A stretch of 64,000 nucleotides of DNA from an uncultured Chloroflexia bacterium (GTDB lineage Bacteria; Chloroflexota; Limnocylindria; Limnocylindrales; CSP1-4). Location of the stretch: positions 543,496-607,495 of the forward strand of contig CAWJBJ010000004.1 in assembly GCA_963841135.1 (NCBI GenBank), in the 5' to 3' direction. Under the pieces are notes generated by a model, which worked only from the letters and a program-made list of their open reading frames with translations, had not been told where the DNA came from and did not search any database. Made by a program: the position numbers and the translations under genes. How positions within the stretch are numbered: the first letter of the stretch is position 1; each line of letters opens with the position of its first letter. Shown one piece after another: positions 31-38,923 of the stretch.

Positions 31-107
31 TGGCCCGCCCGGAGGGATTCGAACCCCCGACCTACTGATCCGAAGTCAGTCGCTCTGATCCACTGAGCTA
101 CGGGCGG
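31..107 (-). tRNA. tRNA-Arg (anticodon UCG), CCA encoded
   Basis: Reverse complement folds as a cloverleaf: acceptor CCGCCCG/CGGGCGG, D arm GCTC..GAGC, anticodon stem ACTGA/TCAGT with loop CTTCGGA (anticodon TCG), T arm GGGGG-TTCGAAT-CCCTC, then G-CCA. Confidence 0.9.
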
Positions 108-155
108 ACGCCCGCGGATGATAGCGCGTCGGCGATCGCAACCGAGTCGCAAGGG

Positions 156-184
156 TTGCAAAAGCCCGACTAATCCACTAGGGT
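156..184 (+). promoter_or_regulatory. candidate sigma-70-type promoter TTGCAA-N17-TAGGGT
   Basis: Hexamers 156-161 and 179-184 with a 17-nt spacer. The -10 fits TANNNT. The predicted start falls on the A of ATG 192. Confidence 0.3.
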
Positions 185-327
185 TTCGCGCATGATCGCT
201 CACCGCTGCTCCCGCGACATGTGTCCGTGCTGGCGACCCCGCCACGCGGAGGATGGGGTCCGGGATCGACGCGCTGAGCAGGTCCGACGCCTGAGCAACG
301 CCGTCGCCGGATCCACCGTTCACAGGG

Positions 328-363
328 GTCGCAGTCCACTAGGTGGCTGCGGCTCTTTTGTTT
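328..363 (+). terminator. intrinsic terminator-like hairpin plus U-tract in the rhodanese leader
   Basis: GTCGCAGTCCAC-TAG-GTGGCTGCGGC (11 bp, one bulge) followed by TCTTTTGTTT. It lies 32 nt upstream of ATG 395. T-runs are rare in this GC-rich sequence. Confidence 0.5.
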
Positions 364-394: not shown

Positions 395-1741
395 ATGTCT
401 GACACGAACGACGTGCAGTCGTTGACACCACGATCCATCTCGACGACCGAACTGCTCGAACGTCTCGGCGACCCGGGCGTGACGATCGTCGACGTCCGGC
501 CGATCGCCGCCTACAACGGCTGGCGCCTCCAGGGCGAAGCGCGAGGCGGCCACATCCCGGGCGCCGTCGGCCTTCCCGGCCGCCTGGCTGCGCAGCGTCG
601 ACGAGGCCGAGATCGAGCGCCTGCTCCACGAGAAGGGGATCACGCCGGATCGCACGATCGTGGTCTACGGCGACGGCGCCGAGGACGCGCGGCCGTCGCT
701 GACGCGCCTGACGTTGCACGGCCACGCCGGACGTCCTCCGCTACGACGCCGGGTTCGCCGGCGTGGGCGGCGGACGAGCGCCTGCCGATCGAGCGGCTGC
801 CGAACTACGAGCGACTCGTCCACGTCGAGTGGCTGCGCCAGCTCCTCGCCGGCGAGCGGCCCGGAGGCCTACGACAACGACAAGTTCCTGCTCTTCCACG
901 TCAACTTCGGCGTGCCCGAGGAGTACGAGGAGGGCCACCTGCCCGGCGCGCTCTACCTCGACACGAACCGCCTCGAGGACCCGGCCGACTGGAACCGCCG
1001 CTCGCCCGACGAGATCGAGGCGACCCTCCGGGCCCTCGGGATCACCCACGACACGACGGTCGTCGCTCTACGGCCGCGACACGGTGGGCGACGCCAACGA
1101 GAAGTGGCCGGGCCGTCGGGCCGGGCAGATCGCCGCGACCCGCGCCGCGCTCATCCTGCGCTACGCCGGCGTCGACGACGTCCGCCTGCTCGACGGCGGC
1201 TACGACTGGTGGGTCACCGACGGACACCCGCTCGAGACCGTGCATCCGCGAGCCGTCGCCGGTCGCGAGCTTCGGCGTCTCGATCCCGCAGCGCCCCGAC
1301 TACATCGTCGACATCGGCGAGGCCAAGGAGATCCTGGCCGACCAGGCCGGCGCCGCGCTCGTCAGCGTCCGCACCTGGCGCGAGCACATCGGCAACGTCA
1401 GCGGCTACAACTACATCGGCCCGGCCGGCCGGATCGCCGGCGACGTCTGGGGCAACTGCGGCACCGACGCGTACCACATGCAGCACTACCGCAACGTGGA
1501 CAACACGATGCGCGCCTACCCCGAGATCGCGGCCAACTGGGAAGAGGCCGGGATCACCCGCGACAAGTGGGTCGCGTTCTACTGCGGCACGGGCTGGCGC
1601 GCCGCCGAGACGTGGTTCTACGCCTTCCTGATGGACTGGCCGCGCATCGCGGTCTACGACGGCGGCTGGTTCGAGTGGAGCCAGGACCCGATCAACAACC
1701 CCATCGAGGTCGGCGAGCCCGAGGACGGCGTCGCCGCCTGA
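395..1741 (+). pseudogene. multi-rhodanese-domain thiosulfate sulfurtransferase, frame interrupted about 6 times
   Basis: Rhodanese-like segments are spread over three frames: 395.. (VTIVDVRP..GHIPGAV), the 660 frame (IVVYGDG; DKFLLFHVNFG..GHLPGALYLD), the 763 frame (LYGRDTVG..LLDGGYDWW), then back to the 395 frame. The C-terminal domain has the active-site loop FYCGTGWRAAE. GGGAG lies before ATG 395. Confidence 0.8.
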
Positions 1742-2574: not shown

Positions 2575-3955
2575 TCAGTCCCAGGCGGGGAGGAGCTGGC
2601 GGTCCAGCCACTCCCCGGGTTCCTGCCGCGGCCGGATGAGGGCCGCTTGTCCGCCCTGGACCGCCACCTCGGCCGGGATCGGGTGGGAGAGGAACAGCGG
2701 CATCGACTCCGTGTAGCCGTACGCGCCGACGTCCAGGACCGCGACGAGCTCGCCGACCTCCGGGGTGGCGAGGATCGCGTGCTGGGTGAAGACGTCGAGC
2801 CCTGAGCACAGCGGCCCGGCGACCGTCACGGGGCCCAGCCGGCCAATCGAGGCGGACTCCGGACGAGCCGACAGGACGCGGATCCGGTGCTCCTGGCCGA
2901 CCAGGGCCGGCCGCAGCAGGTGATGGACGCCGCCGTCGAGCACGACGACCGTCGAGCCGTCCACGGTCTTGCGGTCGACCACGCGCGAGAGGTACGCGCC
3001 GGCCGCGCCGACGAGGAAACGGCCCGGCTCGAGCAGCAGCCGCGCCTCGGACAGGAGCGGGTCGTCCGGCCAGGCGGCCACGATCCCGTCGAGGCCGCGG
3101 CCGAAGCGGGCGAGGTCAAGCGACTCCTCGTGGGACTTCGTACGGGATCCCGAGGCCGCCTCCGGCGTCGACAGGCGGACGGTCGTGCCGGCAAGCTCGG
3201 CGAGCTGGCGGGCGGCCCGGACGGTGGACGCGACATGGTCGACGAGCGCCGACGCGTCGAGGACGTTCGACGCCCCGAAGCAGTGCAGGCCCAGCAGCTC
3301 CAGGTGCGGTGACCGGGCGGCCTGTCGCGCCGAGCGCGACGAGGTCCGCCGCGTCCATCCCGAACTTGCCCGCGCCGTCGTCGCCGACGAGTCGGACGCG
3401 CTCGAGTCGGGCGCCCTCGCTCATCGCCGCGCGCAGCATCACCGGCACGCGACGGCCGGACGTGGCCGCGATCGCCTCGAGCCGTGCCGAGCTCACCCGG
3501 CGACTCGACGGTGATCGCCCGGATCCCGGCGGCCACCGCGGCCCGCAGCTCGTCGTCGCGCTTGCCCGGACCGGTCATGACGATGCGCGATGGGTCGATG
3601 CCCGCCCGCAGGGCCGTCGCCAGCTCACCGGCCGAGGCAACGTCGGCACCCGTTCCGAGCCGGCCGAGGTGCGCGACCACGGCCAGTGCCGGGTTCGCCT
3701 TCACGGCATACGCCAGATCGACCACCGCGCGGCAGCACGGCACGAAGTGCGGCGACCTGGCCGTCGATGACGTCGAGGTCGTACACGTAGAGCGGGGTCC
3801 CGAAGCGGGTCGCCAGCTCCTCGGGCGCCAGGCCGCCGAGACGACCCGCCCGGAGGATCTCGTTGCGTGCCGGCGGCCGGCCACGCCGCGGGCGCTCGAG
3901 AGCGTCCGCGCCGGGTGTCGTCGCCGATCGACGGCGGCGTGCGGGTCAGGCTCAT
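2575..3955 (-). pseudogene. lysA: diaminopimelate decarboxylase, at least 6 frame changes
   Basis: Fragments: N-terminal FGTPLYVYDLDVIDGQVAALR; VDLAYAVKANPAL..IVMTGPGK; GKFGMDAADLVAL; HLELLGLHCFGASNV; VDAGGGLGIPYE. The C-terminal 168 aa (2575-3081: LLLEPGRFLVG..LDVGAYGY) is intact. The ATG overlaps the dapD stop (ATGA 3952-3955). Confidence 0.8.
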
Positions 3956-4785
3956 CGAAGGGCGTCCTCGAGCGCGACCCGCGCGGCCGTGCCGGCGTCA
4001 CGGTCCTTGACGAGCAACGCCACGGACACCGAGAGGCCGTGCTCCTCGGCGAACCCGCCGGGCATGGACCGGGCGCCCGGCACGACCACGGCCCCGGCCG
4101 GGACGACGAGCGGCGCGTCCGCCGTGCCTGTGAGGACGCGTCCGCGGACGAGGTCGTAGAGCCGCGACGACCCGGTGAGGGTCACCCCGGCCCCGATGAC
4201 CGCGCCACGCTGGACCAGCACGCCCTCGAGGAGCGCGCTGCCCGCGCCGACGAACGCCTCGTCCTCGACGATGACGGGCCGGGCACCGGCGGGCTCGAGC
4301 ACGCCACCGATCGTCACCCCGGCCGACAGGTGGACCCGGGAGCCGATCTGGGCACACGAGCCGACCAGGACGTGGGAATCGACCATCGTGCCCTCGCCGA
4401 CCCACGCCCCGATGTTCACGTACGACGGCGGCATCACGACGACGCCGTCGGCCAGGTGCGCGCCGCGCCGGACCGCGGTGCCGCCCGGCACGATCCTCCA
4501 CGGCCCATCGGCGAGGTCGTCACGCGGGGGGACCGCCGCCCGGTCGCGGAAGGTCAGCGGGCCGACCGTCCAGGACTGCGTGGTCCGGTCGCCGAAGCAC
4601 GCGAGGATCGCGGACTTCACCTCGGGCCGGACCCGCCAGCCGTCCGGCGAGTCCGCGTCGGGCTCGGCGGCCCGGATCCTCCCCGACTCGAGGTCGGCGA
4701 GGATCGTCCGTGGATCGGTCGTGGCGGCCTCGGCCGTCGGTGACTCGGCGGTCGGCCGTGCCGACAGCTCGGTCTGGGCCGTCAT
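3952..4785 (-). CDS. dapD: 2,3,4,5-tetrahydropyridine-2,6-dicarboxylate N-succinyltransferase
   Basis: Uninterrupted 277 aa. Left-handed beta-helix hexapeptide repeats (VNIGAWVGEGTMVDSHVLVGSCAQIGSRVHLSAGVTIGG) follow a DapD-type N-terminal domain. ATGA overlap with dapA. Confidence 0.8.
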   Translation of the reverse strand: MTAQTELSARPTAESPTAEAATTDPRTILADLESGRIRAAEPDADSPDGWRVRPEVKSAILACFGDRTTQSWTVGPLTFRDRAAVPPRDDLADGPWRIVPGGTAVRRGAHLADGVVVMPPSYVNIGAWVGEGTMVDSHVLVGSCAQIGSRVHLSAGVTIGGVLEPAGARPVIVEDEAFVGAGSALLEGVLVQRGAVIGAGVTLTGSSRLYDLVRGRVLTGTADAPLVVPAGAVVVPGARSMPGGFAEEHGLSVSVALLVKDRDAGTAARVALEDALR

Positions 4786-5819
4786 GCCACGGCCTCGCGG
4801 GTCGTGGCCGGCGCGGCCATCGTCGGGGAGGCCATCCGGCCACCGGTCGACTCGAGCAGTCCGAGCGTGCGGAGCGTGCCGGCCATGGCGGCCCGAGCGT
4901 CCGCCTCGAGCGGCAGGAGCGGCGCGCGGACCGCATCGCTGTCGAGCAGGCCCATCAGCATGAGCGCGGCCTTCGCCGGGACCGGGTTCGGGCCGCCCCG
5001 GAAGTTGCCGAGGAACAGCGGCAGCCAGCGCTCGTGCGTCCGACGGGCCGTCTCCCAGTCGCCCGCGCGTGCCGCGGCACAGAGCGTGACGAGCTCGCCG
5101 GGGATCTCGTTCGACGCGACCGAGACCACGCCATCGCCGCCCATCGCGAGGACCGGCAGGGTCCAGGCGTCGTCGCCAGCAAGGACCGCCACGTCGCGCG
5201 GCCGCTCCCGGCAGATCCGGGCGATCTGCTCGAGGTTGCCGCTCGCTTCCTTGACCGCCACGACCCGCGGGTGCTCGGCGAGCCGCAGGAACGTGTCGGC
5301 GTCGACGTTCGTGCCGGTTCGGCCGGGCACGTTGTAGACGACGATCGGCAGGCCGCCCTCATCGGCGACCGCGCGATAGTGGGCATCGAGCATCCGGCCG
5401 TCGGGCCGGTTGTAGTACGGGGCGACGACAAGCGCCGCATCCGCGCCGAGCTCGGCTGCCCGGCGCGTCGCGCGGATCGTGGCGGCCGTGTCGTTCGTGC
5501 CGGTGCCGGCAACGACCCGCACGCGGGCACGTGACGAGCGCTCGCTCGCGACCTCGACGGTCGCCGCGATCAGCCGCTCGCGTTCCGATTCGCTCAGAGT
5601 GGGGGACTCGCCGGTCGTGCCGCACGGCACGAGGCCGTCGATCCCGGCGAGGATCTGCCAGCGGACGAGCCGTCGGAAGGCGCTCTCGTCGAGCGTGCCG
5701 TCGGGCGCGAATGGCGTGACCAGGGCGGTGAAGGCGCCGCGCAGCATCGGGCGGGTCGGGCGCGGCGTGGTCGTTGCGGTCGTGTCGATCGTCGGCGTGG
5801 TGGAGGTCGTCGGGGTCAT
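4782..5819 (-). CDS. dapA: 4-hydroxy-tetrahydrodipicolinate synthase with a Thr-rich N-terminal extension
   Basis: 345 aa. Contains FTALVTPF..VPCGTTGESPTLS..VVAGTGTNDT..YNVPGRTG. AAGGAG lies 5 nt before ATG 5819. Confidence 0.9.
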   Translation of the reverse strand: MTPTTSTTPTIDTTATTTPRPTRPMLRGAFTALVTPFAPDGTLDESAFRRLVRWQILAGIDGLVPCGTTGESPTLSESERERLIAATVEVASERSSRARVRVVAGTGTNDTAATIRATRRAAELGADAALVVAPYYNRPDGRMLDAHYRAVADEGGLPIVVYNVPGRTGTNVDADTFLRLAEHPRVVAVKEASGNLEQIARICRERPRDVAVLAGDDAWTLPVLAMGGDGVVSVASNEIPGELVTLCAAARAGDWETARRTHERWLPLFLGNFRGGPNPVPAKAALMLMGLLDSDAVRAPLLPLEADARAAMAGTLRTLGLLESTGGRMASPTMAAPATTREAVA

Positions 5820-5831
5820 CGGGTGCTCCTT

Positions 5832-6587
5832 TCAGGTCGTGTCGTGTCGGGTCGTCAGGCGGCGATCGGGGTCGCGAGCCAGGAGCTCGTCGACGATCGG
5901 ATCGAAGGAGTGGATGCCGGCCGGCCGCGGTTCGCGTGCCAGCCAGTCACCGGAGGCGAGGATCCCGGCCGCGTACGCGGTCCGGTCGCGGGCGGTCAGT
6001 CGAAGCTCGACGGTCTCGCCGGGCGCATCGAAGCCGACGAGGTGCATGCCCGGTGATGAGCCTGCCCGGATCGAGACGACCTCGAGGTCGTCGGGCTGGC
6101 TCAGGCCGGGGTGGCCGTCGACGATCCGCCCGGCCAGGTCACGCGCGGTGCCGGACGGACGGTCGAGCTTGGCGCGCCGGTGCCACTCGACGAGGTACGG
6201 GTCGAAGTCGTCGAGACGCCCGAAGAGCGCAACTGCCGAATCGATGAGCCGGCCGAAGAGTGCCACGCCGAGGCTGAAGTTCGAGGCGGCGACGGCCGCG
6301 GCATCGTGTCCGGTCAGCAGCCCTTCGACGAGCGCCCGGTCGGCGGTCCAGCCCGTGGTCGCGATCACGATCCGGCGGTTCCCGGCGTCGAGCGCACTCG
6401 AGAGGTTGGTGGCGACGGCGTCGGGCCGGGACGCCTCGACGACGAGATCGGCGCCGGTCAGCGTCGACGGATCATGCCGTCCGCGGGTCGGCCGCCCGAC
6501 GAGCCGGACCTCGTCGCCCCGCCGGCGCGCGGTCTCCGCAACGGCCGTCCCGAGGCCGCCATCGCCGAGGATGAGGATGGTCTGCAT
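5832..6587 (-). CDS. dapB: 4-hydroxy-tetrahydrodipicolinate reductase
   Basis: 251 aa. N-terminal ILILGDGGLGTAV NAD(P) fold and C-terminal DapB motifs (EWHRRAKLDRPSGTA). Confidence 0.9.
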   Translation of the reverse strand: MQTILILGDGGLGTAVAETARRRGDEVRLVGRPTRGRHDPSTLTGADLVVEASRPDAVATNLSSALDAGNRRIVIATTGWTADRALVEGLLTGHDAAAVAASNFSLGVALFGRLIDSAVALFGRLDDFDPYLVEWHRRAKLDRPSGTARDLAGRIVDGHPGLSQPDDLEVVSIRAGSSPGMHLVGFDAPGETVELRLTARDRTAYAAGILASGDWLAREPRPAGIHSFDPIVDELLARDPDRRLTTRHDTT

Positions 6588-6596
6588 GTCCGTGAT

Positions 6597-6619
6597 CCCT
6601 CACTTCGATTGGTGAGGGG
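6597..6619 (-). promoter_or_regulatory. hairpin sequestering the dapB Shine-Dalgarno
   Basis: Minus strand CCCTCAC-caatcgaa-GTGAGGG. The 3' arm contains GAGGG, 9 nt before dapB ATG 6587. Confidence 0.3.
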
Positions 6620-6640
6620 CCGCCGGGGGAGGTTCCAGAC

Positions 6641-6676
6641 AACGAAAAGCCGCGGTCACCGTCGTGGTGCCGCGGC
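6641..6676 (-). terminator. intrinsic terminator inside the dapB leader (attenuator candidate)
   Basis: Minus strand GCCGCGGCACC-ACGAC-GGTGACCGCGGC (7+4 bp) followed by TTTTCGTT. It lies between a candidate promoter/sORF and dapB. Confidence 0.55.
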
Positions 6677-6725
6677 CCCTGGAGCCTCCGTTCCCTGGAG
6701 GCCCCGGTTCGTCGTCGACGCGCCG

Positions 6726-6806
6726 TCAGAGCCCCAGGGCCCGTGCCTCCCGGCAGGGCCGCCAGAGCTTCTTCTTCGACTCCTCGGAGAAGGTGCGGCG
6801 GTTCAT
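6726..6806 (-). CDS. candidate leaderless leader peptide MNRRTFSEESKKKLWRPCREARALGL
   Basis: 26 codons with three consecutive AAG Lys codons (6768-6776). The ATG coincides with the predicted transcription start of the promoter at 6814-6842. No Shine-Dalgarno. Confidence 0.35.
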   Translation of the reverse strand: MNRRTFSEESKKKLWRPCREARALGL

Positions 6807-6813
6807 ATGCGGA

Positions 6814-6842
6814 ACCATACGCATAAAGCGAATCTCATGCAA
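6814..6842 (-). promoter_or_regulatory. candidate promoter TTGCAT-N17-TATGGT for the dap operon leader
   Basis: The hexamers sit in the only AT-enriched stretch of the dapB/M23 divergent region. The spacer is exactly 17 nt and the -10 ends 7 nt before ATG 6806. Confidence 0.35.
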
Positions 6843-7030
6843 CCATTTCCTGCAGGGCTTGCGGGCAGCCCACTGCTCCGGTGGTACACATCGGTCGGTG
6901 CCCCGCCCGTCTCCCGACCGGTTCCCCGGTCCCCTCGACAACCTGCCGCGCCCGCTGTCCGAGCGCGACCGCGGGGGTTCGGGGCGCCGACGACTGCTGG
7001 CACTGACGACGGTCGCGGTCGTGGTGGCCG

Positions 7031-7873
7031 GTGTCGTCGGAGCGAGCGCAGATGGCCGGCTCGGTGCGGCTGCCGGACATCGGCGCGGTCGCCGGGGCGA
7101 TCGGGACGCCGGCACACACCGATCCACCCGCCGCTGGCCGCACCGGGAACGGCGTCACCGGCGCGGACTCCGACGCGGCCATCCCCTTCGCAGCGCCCGA
7201 TGATCGCCTGGATCTCTCTCGCGTCCGCGCCAAGGTCGCCCCGCCGCCGTCGCGGCTGAGCGGCTACCAGTGGCCGCTTGCCCACGGACGCCTGACGCTC
7301 CCGTTCGGTCCGACTCCCTGGGGCTCGCGCATCGTCGACGGCGCGAACTTCCACGACGGCATCGACCTCGCGACGTTCTGTGGCGACCGCGTCCTCGCCG
7401 CCCACGACGGCGTCGTCCTGGCGGCCGGCCGGCACTACGACAAGCTCATGGGCTGGGTCGGCGACCTCGGGCCGTACCTGCGCCGCCTCGAGAAGAAGCA
7501 CCTGTGGGCAACGCTGCCGATCGTCGTCGTCATCGATGACGGCAACGGCTATCGCAGCATCTACGCCCACTTCGGCAAGATCACGGTCAAGAAGGGCGAT
7601 CGCGTGCGTGCCGGGAAGCTGATCGGCTACGAGGGCGCGACCGGCCGGGCGTCGGGCTGCCATCTCCACTACGGGCTCTTCAGCCCGCTCGAGCGCGCCC
7701 GGTTCAAGATCGACGCCGACGTCGCGAAGCGGATGAAGCTGCCCCGCTACGAGATCGCCCGGATCGACCCGCTGCTCGTCCTGCCGGAGCGGACGAAGGC
7801 ACCGAAGCCGACGCCGACGACGGATCCCGGCGCGGAGCCGACGCCCACGCCCTCGCCCGAAACGGTGGGCTGA
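7031..7873 (+). CDS. M23 family metallopeptidase (possibly frameshifted after its signal peptide)
   Basis: Contains HDGIDLA, GNGYRSIYAH and GCHLHYG motifs. A signal peptide, RRRLLALTTVAVVVAGVVGASA/DG, is encoded from GTG 6899 in the -1 neighbouring frame and meets this frame near 7045. Confidence 0.8.
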   Translation: MSSERAQMAGSVRLPDIGAVAGAIGTPAHTDPPAAGRTGNGVTGADSDAAIPFAAPDDRLDLSRVRAKVAPPPSRLSGYQWPLAHGRLTLPFGPTPWGSRIVDGANFHDGIDLATFCGDRVLAAHDGVVLAAGRHYDKLMGWVGDLGPYLRRLEKKHLWATLPIVVVIDDGNGYRSIYAHFGKITVKKGDRVRAGKLIGYEGATGRASGCHLHYGLFSPLERARFKIDADVAKRMKLPRYEIARIDPLLVLPERTKAPKPTPTTDPGAEPTPTPSPETVG

Positions 7874-7890
7874 GCACGCGACGCCGCGGG

Positions 7891-9301
7891 TCAGCGAGGG
7901 GCGGCGACCCGGCGGTAGCGGCGGGCGATCAGCCAGTACGCCGGGATCGACGCCAGCGCCTCCGACACCGACAGGACCCGTCCGTCGCGGCTCTCGAGCG
8001 AGAGCAGCGCGTCGGCCGATGACGCGTCGGCCGGCCGGGCATCCACCTCGGCGAGGTCGATCGCCACGCGTCCTGCCTCCTCGGGCCCGAGCGACGCGAT
8101 CAACGCGTCGGGTCGGGCGCCGGCTTCGTATTCGGCGCGGATCTCCAGGTCGGAACGCCACGTCGGCTGGCGCAGGAGCACCGCCCGCCAGCCGTCGGCG
8201 ACGGCGGACGCCACGGTGCCGTCGCCCGGTACGGCATGGGCCGACACCGCCTCGCCACGCGCCCAGCGCGCGGCCTGGTGGAGCAGCGCGTACTCGTCGA
8301 GATCGGCGTACGCGCTGAGGCGGTCGGCCGGCGACCCGTCGCCGAAGATCGCCCGGATCGACGGCGCGAAGAGCTCGGCGAGGTCGAGGTCGATGGCGCG
8401 GACCGTCCGGTGGAAGTAGACCTGCTGGTACATGAACCGGCGGGCCGTGAGGAACATCTCCAGCGCACCGAGACCCGGCTCGTAGAGCGTCAGCCCGCGC
8501 TCCGAGATGAACGTGTACCGCCGGAGCCTCTCCACGTCGACCGGGCCGACGGACACGCCGGTCACGTAGGCGTCGCGGCGCACGTAGTCCAGGTTGTCGA
8601 CGGTGAACACGCCCGACAGCAGCGGCTGGAGCCAGCGGACCCAGCGCGGCATCGCCCCGTCGACGAGTGCCGGCTTCGAGATCAGGAACGAGACCCAGGC
8701 CGGGTCGATCGCCTCGTCGTCACCGAAGGCGTCGCGCTCCGCGACGTCACCTGGCGCCCGGCGCAGGCCGCGCAGGAGCGCGCCGAGCTCGTCCTCGATG
8801 ATCCGCCCCGACAGATCCTCGTGGGTCAGGCGCTTGCCATCGGGTCGCCGCGGGTCGACGGGGGCCGGGAAGGCGACGAGGACCTGGTCGTCGAAGAAGT
8901 GGGCGAACGGCCCGTGGCCGACGTCGTGGAGGAGGCCGGCCATCCGCAGGGTCTCGACGACGAGGCCCTCCGACGGGACGGGCTCGGCCGCCACGGACCA
9001 GCTCGCCGCGCAGGCTCGGGTAGAGCGCCCGGGCCCAGACCCCGGCCTCGTGCATGACGCCGAGGCCGTGCGTGAAGCGCGAGTGCTCCGCTGTCGGGAA
9101 GACCCAGCGCGCGCTCTGGAGCTGGCTGATCCGCCGCAGCCGCTGCATCCAGGTGGTGTCGAGGACGTCCTGCTCGGCCACGTCCTCGTCCGGCAGCCCG
9201 GTCGCCGCCGATTCCTCGCGAGTGAGGCGCTTGGTCAGCTCCACGTACCCGTGGATCGGGTCGCTGATGAGGTTGACCGCCGCGAACTGGTGGCGCTTCA
9301 C
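7891..9301 (-). pseudogene. SAMHD1-like HD-domain dNTP triphosphohydrolase family protein, one +1 frameshift near 8995
   Basis: The N-terminal fragment (8747-9301) has DPIHGYVEL..QRLRRISQL..VFPTAEHSRFTHGLGV. The downstream fragment (7891-8994) has LHDVGHGPFAHFFD and DNLDYVRRD. GTGA overlap with the WYL gene. Confidence 0.8.
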
Positions 9302-38844: not shown

Positions 38845-38917
38845 GGGCCGGTAGCTCAGTGGTCAGAGCAGGGGACTTTTAATCCCTGGGTCGTGGGTTC
38901 GAATCCCACCCGGCTCG
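38845..38917 (+). tRNA. tRNA-Lys (anticodon UUU), CCA not encoded
   Basis: Acceptor GGGCCGG/CCGGCTC, D arm GCTC-AGTGGTC-AGAGC, anticodon stem GGGGA/TCCCT with loop CTTTTAA, T arm GTGGG-TTCGAAT-CCCAC. Confidence 0.9.
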
Positions 38918-38923
38918 CCGAGG

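Follow-up and report, generated by a model that had tools for sequence, protein, structure and literature searches.

A putatively leaderless short open reading frame with lysine codons before dapB in Candidatus Limnocylindria: a candidate ribosome-mediated transcription attenuator

Lysine operons are controlled by L-box riboswitches or by proteins. In a 2005 survey of Actinobacteria no RNA element was found before lysine operons, and the L-box was named as the RNA-level control known for lysine (PMC1262725). Among described systems, the one closest in sensing through a leaderless open reading frame (ORF) is the mycobacterial polycysteine class, whose characterised case frees a sequestered ribosome-binding site and uses no terminator (Canestrari et al. 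2020, bioRxiv 10.1101/834739). Here we analysed a stretch of 64,000 nucleotides (nt) from contig CAWJBJ010000004.1 (the window; G+C content 72%), in which a leader on the minus strand before dapB carries a short ORF with three consecutive AAG (Lys) codons and, further downstream, an intrinsic-terminator-like hairpin. We consider it likely, from the comparison of leader sequences, that this leader is a ribosome-mediated transcription attenuator that reads the Lys codons, and with them the supply of lysyl-tRNA, ahead of the operon dapB-dapA-dapD-lysA. The same interpretation, a Lys leader-peptide attenuator, had been offered in a preliminary description of this DNA, and it is supported by the comparative evidence (ORF, Lys codons, terminator, codon exchange and no Rfam match); all of the features that it named were found in place on reading of the minus strand. 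Its implicit framing of the organism as an actinobacterium was mistaken, as the host is a high-GC member of the Chloroflexota of the Candidatus Limnocylindria type, and the mycobacterial comparison is still useful despite this.

Relatives were collected by a DapB protein scan with one genome per species, which gave 80 loci, all from metagenome-assembled genomes labelled Chloroflexota, Candidatus Limnocylindria or Limnocylindrales and, in a few cases, Anaerolineaceae, Saccharimonadales or Acidimicrobiaceae. Their DapB proteins are 51% to 92% identical to that of the window, and both the leader, directly upstream of dapB, and the terminator hairpin with its U-run are present in 80/80 of these loci. 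A covariance model was built from 66 diverse copies with its start set at the last regulatory codon, so that the first two Lys codons fall outside it; it scored 64-143 bits in each genome locus and 133.9 bits in the window, while weak matches of 17-31 bits were rejected as noise from the palindromic terminator. A pattern scan of metagenomes, in which the core of the ORF-internal hairpin and GGCCGCG were sought and the Lys codons were left out of the pattern, returned 120 stretches, about half of them (~55 contigs) true elements before dapB and the rest mostly random matches in GC-rich coding sequence. The comparison of the ORF was made on 128 distinct leader copies.

In these copies the reading frame is intact between the start codon and a stop, which is placed at the 3' foot of P1, the hairpin that lies inside the ORF, with few exceptions to this intact frame, which are single-base differences (L060, a long-read assembly, and L097, a decaying locus). 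The start codons, assigned automatically in 94 copies, are ATG in 78, GTG in 15 and TTG in 1, and the stop codons of the 128 copies are TGA (82), TAG (32) and TAA (14). TGG was found in 0 copies, against an expectation of about 20 under independence of the two variable stop positions, a figure that serves as an indication and not as a P value given the kinship among the sequences. The linker that surrounds the stop differs in sequence and length between copies, with a stop retained in all of them, and differences in N-terminal length come as whole codons (6, 9, 10 or 11 codons before the first Lys). A 133-codon in-frame extension upstream (6726..7127) was considered and rejected, since it is unconserved and several relatives have a stop just before the ATG. 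These observations bear on a first rival explanation, a new metabolite-binding riboswitch for lysine or an intermediate of the diaminopimelate pathway, in which the ORF would be incidental or serve for ribosome loading only: they speak against it, because the stop changes identity and never becomes sense, and because the start is fixed relative to the promoter while upstream length changes by whole codons.

Within the frame, the two halves of the ORF behave differently. Codons 2-10 have entropies of 0.61, 0.68 and 0.88 at codon positions 1, 2 and 3, with 56 synonymous and 127 non-synonymous differences from the consensus, so that amino acids change freely. Among the changes in codons 14-26, 0 are synonymous and 33 non-synonymous, and this places the constraint there on the RNA. 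This last pattern also led us to reject arrest by the nascent peptide (of the TnaC or SpeFL type), an idea prompted by the conserved-looking KKKLWRPCREARALGL, in which region the W is replaced by L, R, G, M or V. Judged by these substitutions, the peptide is not preserved, and selection at the coding level maintains the frame with its start and stop, together with the Lys codons, which is the pattern expected of a leader peptide.

The Lys codons stand directly before the GC-rich hairpin, and at least two of them (two to four) are present in every complete copy. The full KKK run was found in 103/128 copies, the others having KQK, KAK, KSK or KPKSK, and among the genome loci K-x-K occurs in 19/81. 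Thus the earlier expectation of a conserved Lys-run ORF upstream of dapB held in every relative examined, whereas a strict KKK did not, the middle Lys being replaced in about 15-20%. The preliminary description had further pointed to three consecutive AAG codons in a sequence where Lys is scarce, and this is correct: of 2695 codons in eight genes of the window, 1.15% encode Lys (31 AAG, 0 AAA), and at this background frequency a KKK run in a 26-codon ORF has a chance expectation of about 4e-5. Since AAA is unused in the eight-gene sample, the AAG-only Lys codons of the leader need no special explanation. Lys codons amount to 0.4-0.7% in the four lysine-pathway enzymes (2826-6587, minus strand) and to 4.6% in the neighbouring M23 peptidase, which fits the idea that biosynthetic enzymes avoid their own product. 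A tRNA-Lys with anticodon UUU is located at 38845-38919 (plus strand) in this apparently AAG-only genome, and it bears on which tRNA the leader would sense.

Upstream of the ORF a promoter-like arrangement is conserved as well. Leader positions are numbered here from the A of ATG 6806 (nt 1), at which transcription would start according to the geometry of the putative promoter. In related leaders the -35 position reads TTGCAT, TTGACA or TTGCAA (TTG in 83/94 scored leaders), the TTG-type -35 lies 17-18 nt upstream of the -10, and the start codon follows the -10 after 6-9 nt in 93/94 leaders with a recognised -10 and after 5 nt in one, so that the transcript is predicted from this conserved geometry to start on the start codon or within about 3 nt of it. 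At the other end, 49 nt past the stop of the ORF, the terminator-like hairpin reads as DNA GCCGCGGCACC-ACGAC-GGTGACCGCGGC (6676-6649), followed by TTTTCGTT (6648-6641); it has 11 pairs and one bulged A, and termination is predicted from this sequence. A scan of the leader for consensus promoters and terminators flagged neither, because the -35 is weak by the standard of the Escherichia coli consensus and a bulge interrupts the terminator stem. What argues for a real promoter and a real terminator is their conservation in more than 130 loci.

The secondary structure is conserved to different degrees. The leader folds at -120.8 kcal/mol (z = -4.5 against shuffled controls). In the 66 diverse sequences P1 has 95.6% of cells paired, with compensatory changes from U-A to A-U in 7, and the second hairpin, H2, has 94.6% of cells paired with one compensatory change from C-G to U-A (L007); the small hairpin P2 between them has 55%, where the alignment is poor and support weak. 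RNAalifold on a MAFFT alignment returned the top of P1 and the terminator only, and the other helices were imposed by hand and their pairs counted. The upper stem of the terminator covaries (CACC/GGUG to CUCC/GGAG or CCC/GGG), and the hairpin over the dapB Shine-Dalgarno (SD) sequence is kept in relatives with other sequences, such as CCUCC..GGAGG. Such strong sequence conservation leaves only modest covariation overall. Within the closest clade not one of the 48 nt from AAGAAGAAG to GGGGCUC varies, wobble positions, the GGGA loop of P1 and the rare codon GCA included, and this in genomes with DapB proteins of only 55-90% identity. This invariance, together with a multi-hairpin leader that ends in a terminator and folds very favourably, is what speaks for the riboswitch just mentioned; in distant relatives, however, the P1 loop varies (GGGA, GGAA, GAUU or GAAC).

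Extreme invariance that includes loops could also mark the site of a regulatory protein. This could be an RNA-binding attenuation protein, or a DNA-binding factor that acts on the promoter region in common with the divergent M23 peptidase gene; the position of the element, in the divergent intergenic region of about 440 base pairs (bp) between that gene and dapB, would suit such a site; LEU-type elements of Actinobacteria were proposed to be protein sites (PMC1262725). A protein site agrees poorly with conservation that runs from the promoter to 170 nt into the transcript, with hairpin-compatible substitutions and with a strand-specific U-run, and it leaves the ORF signature unexplained.

The strongest evidence, which bears on both rivals at once, comes from leaders with other codons. 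One match of the metagenome scan (L087, 4830-5023) is a diverged leader of the same architecture before metY (O-acetylhomoserine sulfhydrylase) and metX, with the leader ORF MTTNHSDMCMRLRPSREARD, and a search with protein homologues gave four more Limnocylindria metY loci (L201-L204, 330-600) with the same Met-Cys-Met leader, the ORF pattern being V-[NT]-x-x-x-x-S-x-x-M-C-M-R-W-R-P-R-R-A-E-D-G-V-stop. In these five metY-metX leaders ATG TGT ATG occupies the exact place of AAG AAG AAG in the dapB leaders, and is followed, as there, by UGG CGG CCC opening a GC hairpin, then by a stop at its foot, relay hairpins, a GC hairpin with a U-run, and CCUCC. We know of no described methionine-codon leader peptide. 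A further leader, homologous to the metY and rhodanese leaders of relatives, lies in the window itself before a gene with a rhodanese domain. Its Cys-rich ORF begins MIAHRCSRDMCPCWRPRHAEDGV... (also given as MIAHRCSRDMCPCWRP...), and it has a GC hairpin and UCUUUUGUUU at 324-359, then an anti-SD hairpin, CCCCUCAC..GGGAG. The ORF has no nearby stop in the window, where one extra base is present at the place concerned, and stops after 33 codons in the related leader L207. Rhodanese relatives have either an M-C-x-C leader, as in the window, or a C-A-C-I-C-R-P leader with a terminator; the loci L205 and L208 (about 290-500) belong to a different rhodanese clade with a Cys-rich ORF of leaderless type, MSPFSFACACICRPSAEQGRWCS, followed by the terminator-like CCCCUGCCAGGCAGGGGCCUUUUUAUUUG in L205 and by a shorter version, CCCCUGCCACGCAGGGGUUUUUGUUUG, in L208.

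Codon identity therefore tracks the regulated pathway: Lys at the lysine operon, Met-Cys-Met at metY-metX (L087, L201-L204) and Cys-rich codons at rhodanese genes (window, L205, L207, L208). Three codon classes in step with three pathways are what a codon-reading sensor would predict, and, as read from these leaders, would be hard to reconcile with an aptamer. For the riboswitch, the exchange of exactly three codons in step with the downstream pathway is added to the absence of a match to any known aptamer family, and we consider it very unlikely. A protein site does not explain the exchange either, nor the same architecture before metY and rhodanese genes in genomic neighbourhoods unrelated to the dapB locus, and the chance that it accounts for the conserved block seems to us slighter still.

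In an Rfam scan at E <= 10 no match was found over the leader within 5500-8500, including the L-box (RF00168) and the T-box (RF00230), and at gathering score the whole window and 19 related loci gave no L-box, only tRNAs and one unrelated S-adenosylmethionine (SAM) riboswitch. The lysine riboswitch, which the preliminary description had named as the classical control of lysine genes, is thus without a match over the leader. The metY and rhodanese leaders likewise matched no family in the Rfam scan, and no SAM riboswitch was found in it before the metY-metX operons. GGUGACCGCGG in the 3' arm of the terminator resembles part of the T-box motif, but its position is wrong. A full-text literature search, in which subscription journals were thinly covered, returned no lysine leader-peptide attenuator and none from Chloroflexi. 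A SAM riboswitch was seen at L029:67-175 (RF00162, 74 bits), about 2.8 kb upstream of dapB, so the lineage uses classical riboswitches too.

Table 1. Features of the dapB leader, the operon and its surroundings in the window (leader nt 1 = A of ATG 6806; MFE, minimum free energy; PLP, pyridoxal phosphate; GC3, G+C at third codon positions)
Feature	Window position	Leader nt	Strand	Remarks
-35-like hexamer TTGCAT	6842-6837		minus	matches TTGACA at 3/6 positions
-10-like hexamer TATGGT	6819-6814		minus	17-nt spacer after -35; 7 nt before ATG 6806
Leaderless-type short ORF MNRRTFSEESKKKLWRPCREARALGL	6806-6726		minus	26 codons + TGA; sequence read
Regulatory Lys codons AAG AAG AAG	6776-6768	31-39	minus	
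Hairpin P1, inside the ORF	6769-6730	38-77	minus	MFE fold; 5' arm = segment A, 3' arm = segment B
Segment A core GCGGCCCU	6762-6755	45-52	minus	alternative partners: P1 3' arm or terminator foot
Segment B (P1 3' arm)		60-77		stop codon at nt 79-81
Small hairpin P2 (CGUC-GAC-GACG)	6720-6710	87-97	minus	loop length and sequence vary among relatives
Hairpin H2, GGGGCCUCC-AGGGAAC-GGAGGCUCC	6705-6681	102-110 (arm C), 118-126 (arm D)	minus	
Segment E' AGGGGCCGC	6680-6672	127-135	minus	linker and first five bases of terminator 5' arm
Terminator arms and U-run		131-141 (arm E), 147-158 (arm F), 159-166 (U-run)		
Intrinsic-terminator-like hairpin GCCGCGGCACC / GGUGACCGCGGC and U-run UUUUCGUU	6676-6641		minus	bulged A
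CCUCCC, anti-SD-like	6632-6627		minus	directly after the terminator
Hairpin CCCUCAC-N8-GUGAGGG	6618-6597		minus	covers dapB SD; dapB ATG 6587
dapB	6587-5832		minus	Pfam and NCBIfam; best NCBIfam match TIGR00036, score under its cut-off; divergent DapB
dapA	5819-4782		minus	above NCBIfam equivalog cut-off
dapD	4785-3952		minus	above NCBIfam equivalog cut-off
lysA (diaminopimelate decarboxylase)	about 3800-2575		minus	two reading frames in the assembly
Proposed regulated operon dapB-dapA-dapD-lysA	2575-6587		minus	Pfam and NCBIfam scans
M23 peptidase gene	7031-7873		plus	divergent to dapB; GC3 frame analysis and Pfam
Second related leader	155-359		plus	TTGCAA-N17-TAGGGT-7 nt-ATG(192), before rhodanese-domain gene 395-1741

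On this anatomy we propose the following mechanism. Transcription would start at the ATG or within a few bases of it, and a 70S ribosome would load directly on the 5' end and translate the 26-codon ORF, whose peptide would be irrelevant and whose part would be to set the three AAG codons just 5' of P1. With lysine plentiful, the ribosome would reach the stop at the 3' foot of P1 and leave, P1 would re-form and lock segment A, H2 and the GC-rich terminator would fold, and polymerase would stop at the U-run before dapB. With lysyl-tRNA scarce, the ribosome would stall with the first AAG in its A site and its leading edge would melt the base of P1; freed segment B would then re-pair with the 5' arm of H2 and segment A would pair with AGGGGCCGC at the foot of the terminator, so that the terminator could not seat against the U-run and transcription would enter dapB-dapA-dapD-lysA. 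Leader anatomy, the conservation of frame, start, stop and Lys codons, the RNA constraint on the 3' half of the ORF and the codon change in relatives are established by comparison, at the level of sequence. We infer leaderless initiation and the identity of the antiterminator, and the direction of the switch from biosynthetic logic and the folding models. The hairpin over the dapB SD may add a translational layer, and the anti-SD-like motif (ACCUCC/CCUCCC), which resembles the 3' end of 16S rRNA and recurs after the terminator in Lys and Met leaders, could pair with the GGAGG of H2 or with the SD sequence.

The candidate pairings differ in energy (A:B -30.1, B:D -25.5, E:F -23.8, B:C -23.0, C:D -22.3 and A:E' -20.4 kcal/mol) and in how well they withstand natural variation. 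The preliminary description had taken mutually complementary segments between the end of the ORF and the terminator for alternative pairings; they do join such pairings, but the only one that both reaches the terminator and is insertion-proof is another, GCGGCCCU (6762-6755) with AGGGGCCGC (6680-6672). Natural linker insertions of 6-8 nt reduce A:E' to 6 bp and leave it present, and they cut B:D off from the terminator. An antiterminator B:D' (the P1 3' arm with the H2 3' arm and the first terminator bases, -25.5 kcal/mol) was rejected as a general mechanism, being separated from the terminator by such insertions in seven loci (L023, L028, L038, L058, L060, L075, L140) and failing to reach the terminator in Met leaders. 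Pairing of GCCGC at the 5' end (nt 8-12) with the terminator arm, which was seen in folds, was also rejected, since it has no counterpart in Met leaders or in the L055 clade. At the one variable position of A:E' the pair is G-C in Lys leaders and most Met leaders, G-U in two Met leaders and L207, and A-U in the second leader of the window. The specific switch in which P1 is the anti-antiterminator, A:E' the antiterminator and E:F the terminator is a tentative assignment from these models, which we think somewhat more apt to be wrong than right.

Nascent transcripts were modelled as prefixes that end just before segment F. The ribosome entered these folds as a hard constraint, its footprint reaching 12 nt upstream and 15 nt downstream of the first P-site nucleotide. 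Without a ribosome, the probability of A:E' averages 0.29 in 62 Lys leaders and is 0-0.17 in 4 Met leaders. With the first regulatory codon in the A site it rises to 0.56 in Lys leaders (plus 0.10 with E' paired to B) and 0.72-1.0 in Met leaders, with the third regulatory codon there it is 0.02 and 0-0.17, and with the stop codon there it is 0.74 and 0.79-0.98, respectively; the pattern is sharper in Met-type than in Lys leaders. In the model with a stalled ribosome, segment B exchanges its partner A for C, and B:C also forms in masked folds.

Several of these results weigh against the attenuator as proposed. No MFE fold of the complete leader lost the terminator, whichever ribosome mask was applied, so the switch must be kinetic, as in trp, where the choice made by the attenuator is kinetic. 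With a stall on the third Lys codon, segment A lies under the ribosome (0.02), and a ribosome that lingers at the stop frees segment A too (0.74), so that the direction of the model is right only with fast release, before polymerase makes E'; between the stop and E' there are about 50 nt with two hairpins. A:E' is nearly invariant within the Lys family, and its covariation support comes solely from comparing the three leader classes. The 48-nt block, invariant even in loops, exceeds the usual conservation of classical attenuators. Finally, the reading draws on sequence comparison and folding models, and the lineage is uncultured. On the other side, the decayed locus L097, with its dapB remnant, has lost the ORF frame and the U-run together, which we count in favour of the attenuator.

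The stop-codon result also opens a rival in which the ORF is translated and the output differs: translation to the stop would open P1, making the leader a general sensor of translation capacity, or control would be translational, through the dapB SD hairpin. The first form gains from the models, in which a ribosome at the stop frees A better than a stalled one (0.74 vs 0.56; Met leaders 0.79-0.98), but a general translation sensor would have no need for Lys codons at a lysine operon or Met and Cys codons at metY-metX. The second form gains from the conserved SD-sequestering hairpin and the CCUCC motif downstream of the terminator, and from the characterised mycobacterial leaderless Cys ORF, which acts on access to the ribosome-binding site (bioRxiv 10.1101/834739); here, however, about 150 nt and a strong terminator separate the SD hairpin from the Lys codons, so that a stalled ribosome would be unable to block it directly. 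Moreover, switching a biosynthetic operon off in starvation would be physiologically senseless. We regard a different output as unlikely, and retain transcription attenuation by Lys-codon reading as the preferred explanation.

Further observations concern the quality and rarity of such sites. T-runs of at least 4 number nine in the 64-kb window with both strands counted, and of the three with the strongest preceding hairpins two follow the dapB leader and the second related leader; the remaining T-runs were inspected and rejected as leaders. T-runs being so rare, intrinsic-terminator-like sites stand out sharply in this genome. In lysA (2575-4001, minus strand) the N-terminal PLP domain and the C-terminal sheet domain lie in different frames, and the rhodanese gene (395-1741, plus strand) is 85-88% identical to close relatives over 37% of its length only; the split lysA and this partial match are probably due to single-base assembly errors or real frameshifts in the window. 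A tRNA-Arg (anticodon UCG) lies at 31-107 (minus strand). Among the relatives, L097:100-700 was considered as an element before another gene and rejected because the locus has decayed: about 25 homologous codons are left of dapB, the leader ORF is out of frame by one base and the U-run is degraded (CCTTCTCG). An apparent tandem duplication of the element at L030:2638-2944 was rejected as a scaffolding artefact, since a run of N lies within it.

For lysine biosynthesis, control by the L-box or by proteins is the standard example, and a ribosome-read lysine attenuator would fill a long-standing gap in the set of amino acids known to be sensed through leader peptides. The Met-Cys-Met and Cys-rich leaders suggest one design re-used by way of three codons, a natural experiment in attenuator evolution, and the three-codon exchange would make a compact template for synthetic amino-acid sensors. 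The finding would widen sensing by leaderless short ORFs from mycobacteria to Chloroflexota and tie it to intrinsic termination, and it would supply a rule for spotting unannotated regulatory short ORFs in high-GC uncultured soil bacteria. The lineage is uncultured and abundant in soil, and the apparent family with swapped codons (Lys, Met/Cys, Cys) adds to the interest. Further, we put at about an even chance the broader proposal that Limnocylindria carry a modular family of leaderless leader-peptide attenuators (start at the promoter, three codons, CGN-CCC GC hairpin, stop, relay hairpins, terminator) re-targeted by codon exchange, which would include the first lysine- and methionine-sensing leader peptides besides cysteine versions and amount to a ribosome-read amino-acid regulon in a phylum for which we know of no described attenuation.

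Compared with known systems, the leader would functionally be a classical leader-peptide attenuator, judging from the short ORF, the terminator and the cognate codons, whose identity follows the pathway in related leaders; all of these were found. With the enterobacterial trpL, hisL, thrL, leuL, pheL and ilvL it shares a leader ORF with codons of the pathway, a terminator before the first gene, a peptide that is otherwise unconstrained and, as predicted here, overlapping alternative hairpins and the ribosome as sensor. It differs from them in the amino acid, lysine, for which we found no such leader peptide described; in the ORF, which apparently lies at the 5' end of the transcript and has no SD sequence; in the stop, which is at the 3' foot of the first hairpin and not between segments 1 and 2; in the proposed use of six segments (A:B, C:D and E:F against B:C plus A:E') and not four; and in the host, an uncultured class of Chloroflexota. 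The mgtL/mgtP leader (proline codons) and speF orf34 (arginine codons) of Salmonella are alike in that the speed of leader-ORF codons selects the mRNA structure, and differ in amino acid, host and downstream mechanism (some Rho-dependent), with no sequence relationship to the present leader. The L-box (RF00168) serves the same purpose, with lysine genes under feedback control through a premature stop of transcription in the 5' leader, but it binds free lysine without translation, whereas the dapB leader has a conserved ORF and matches it in neither sequence nor structure. The mycobacterial polycysteine class differs in the codons, which here are Lys, or Met-Cys-Met in the metY leader, and, in its characterised case, in having no terminator, where the present ORF is followed by a conserved GC hairpin and U-run; the dapB leader ORF has a single, non-consecutive Cys and not the two consecutive Cys codons of that class. 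The two would be alike in a leaderless short ORF as first cistron, here a predicted one, and in consecutive codons for the same amino acid that sense charged tRNA, and they are alike in a design shared by several operons (the 'ribulon' idea, bioRxiv 10.1101/834739), of which Limnocylindria too have Cys-rich versions.

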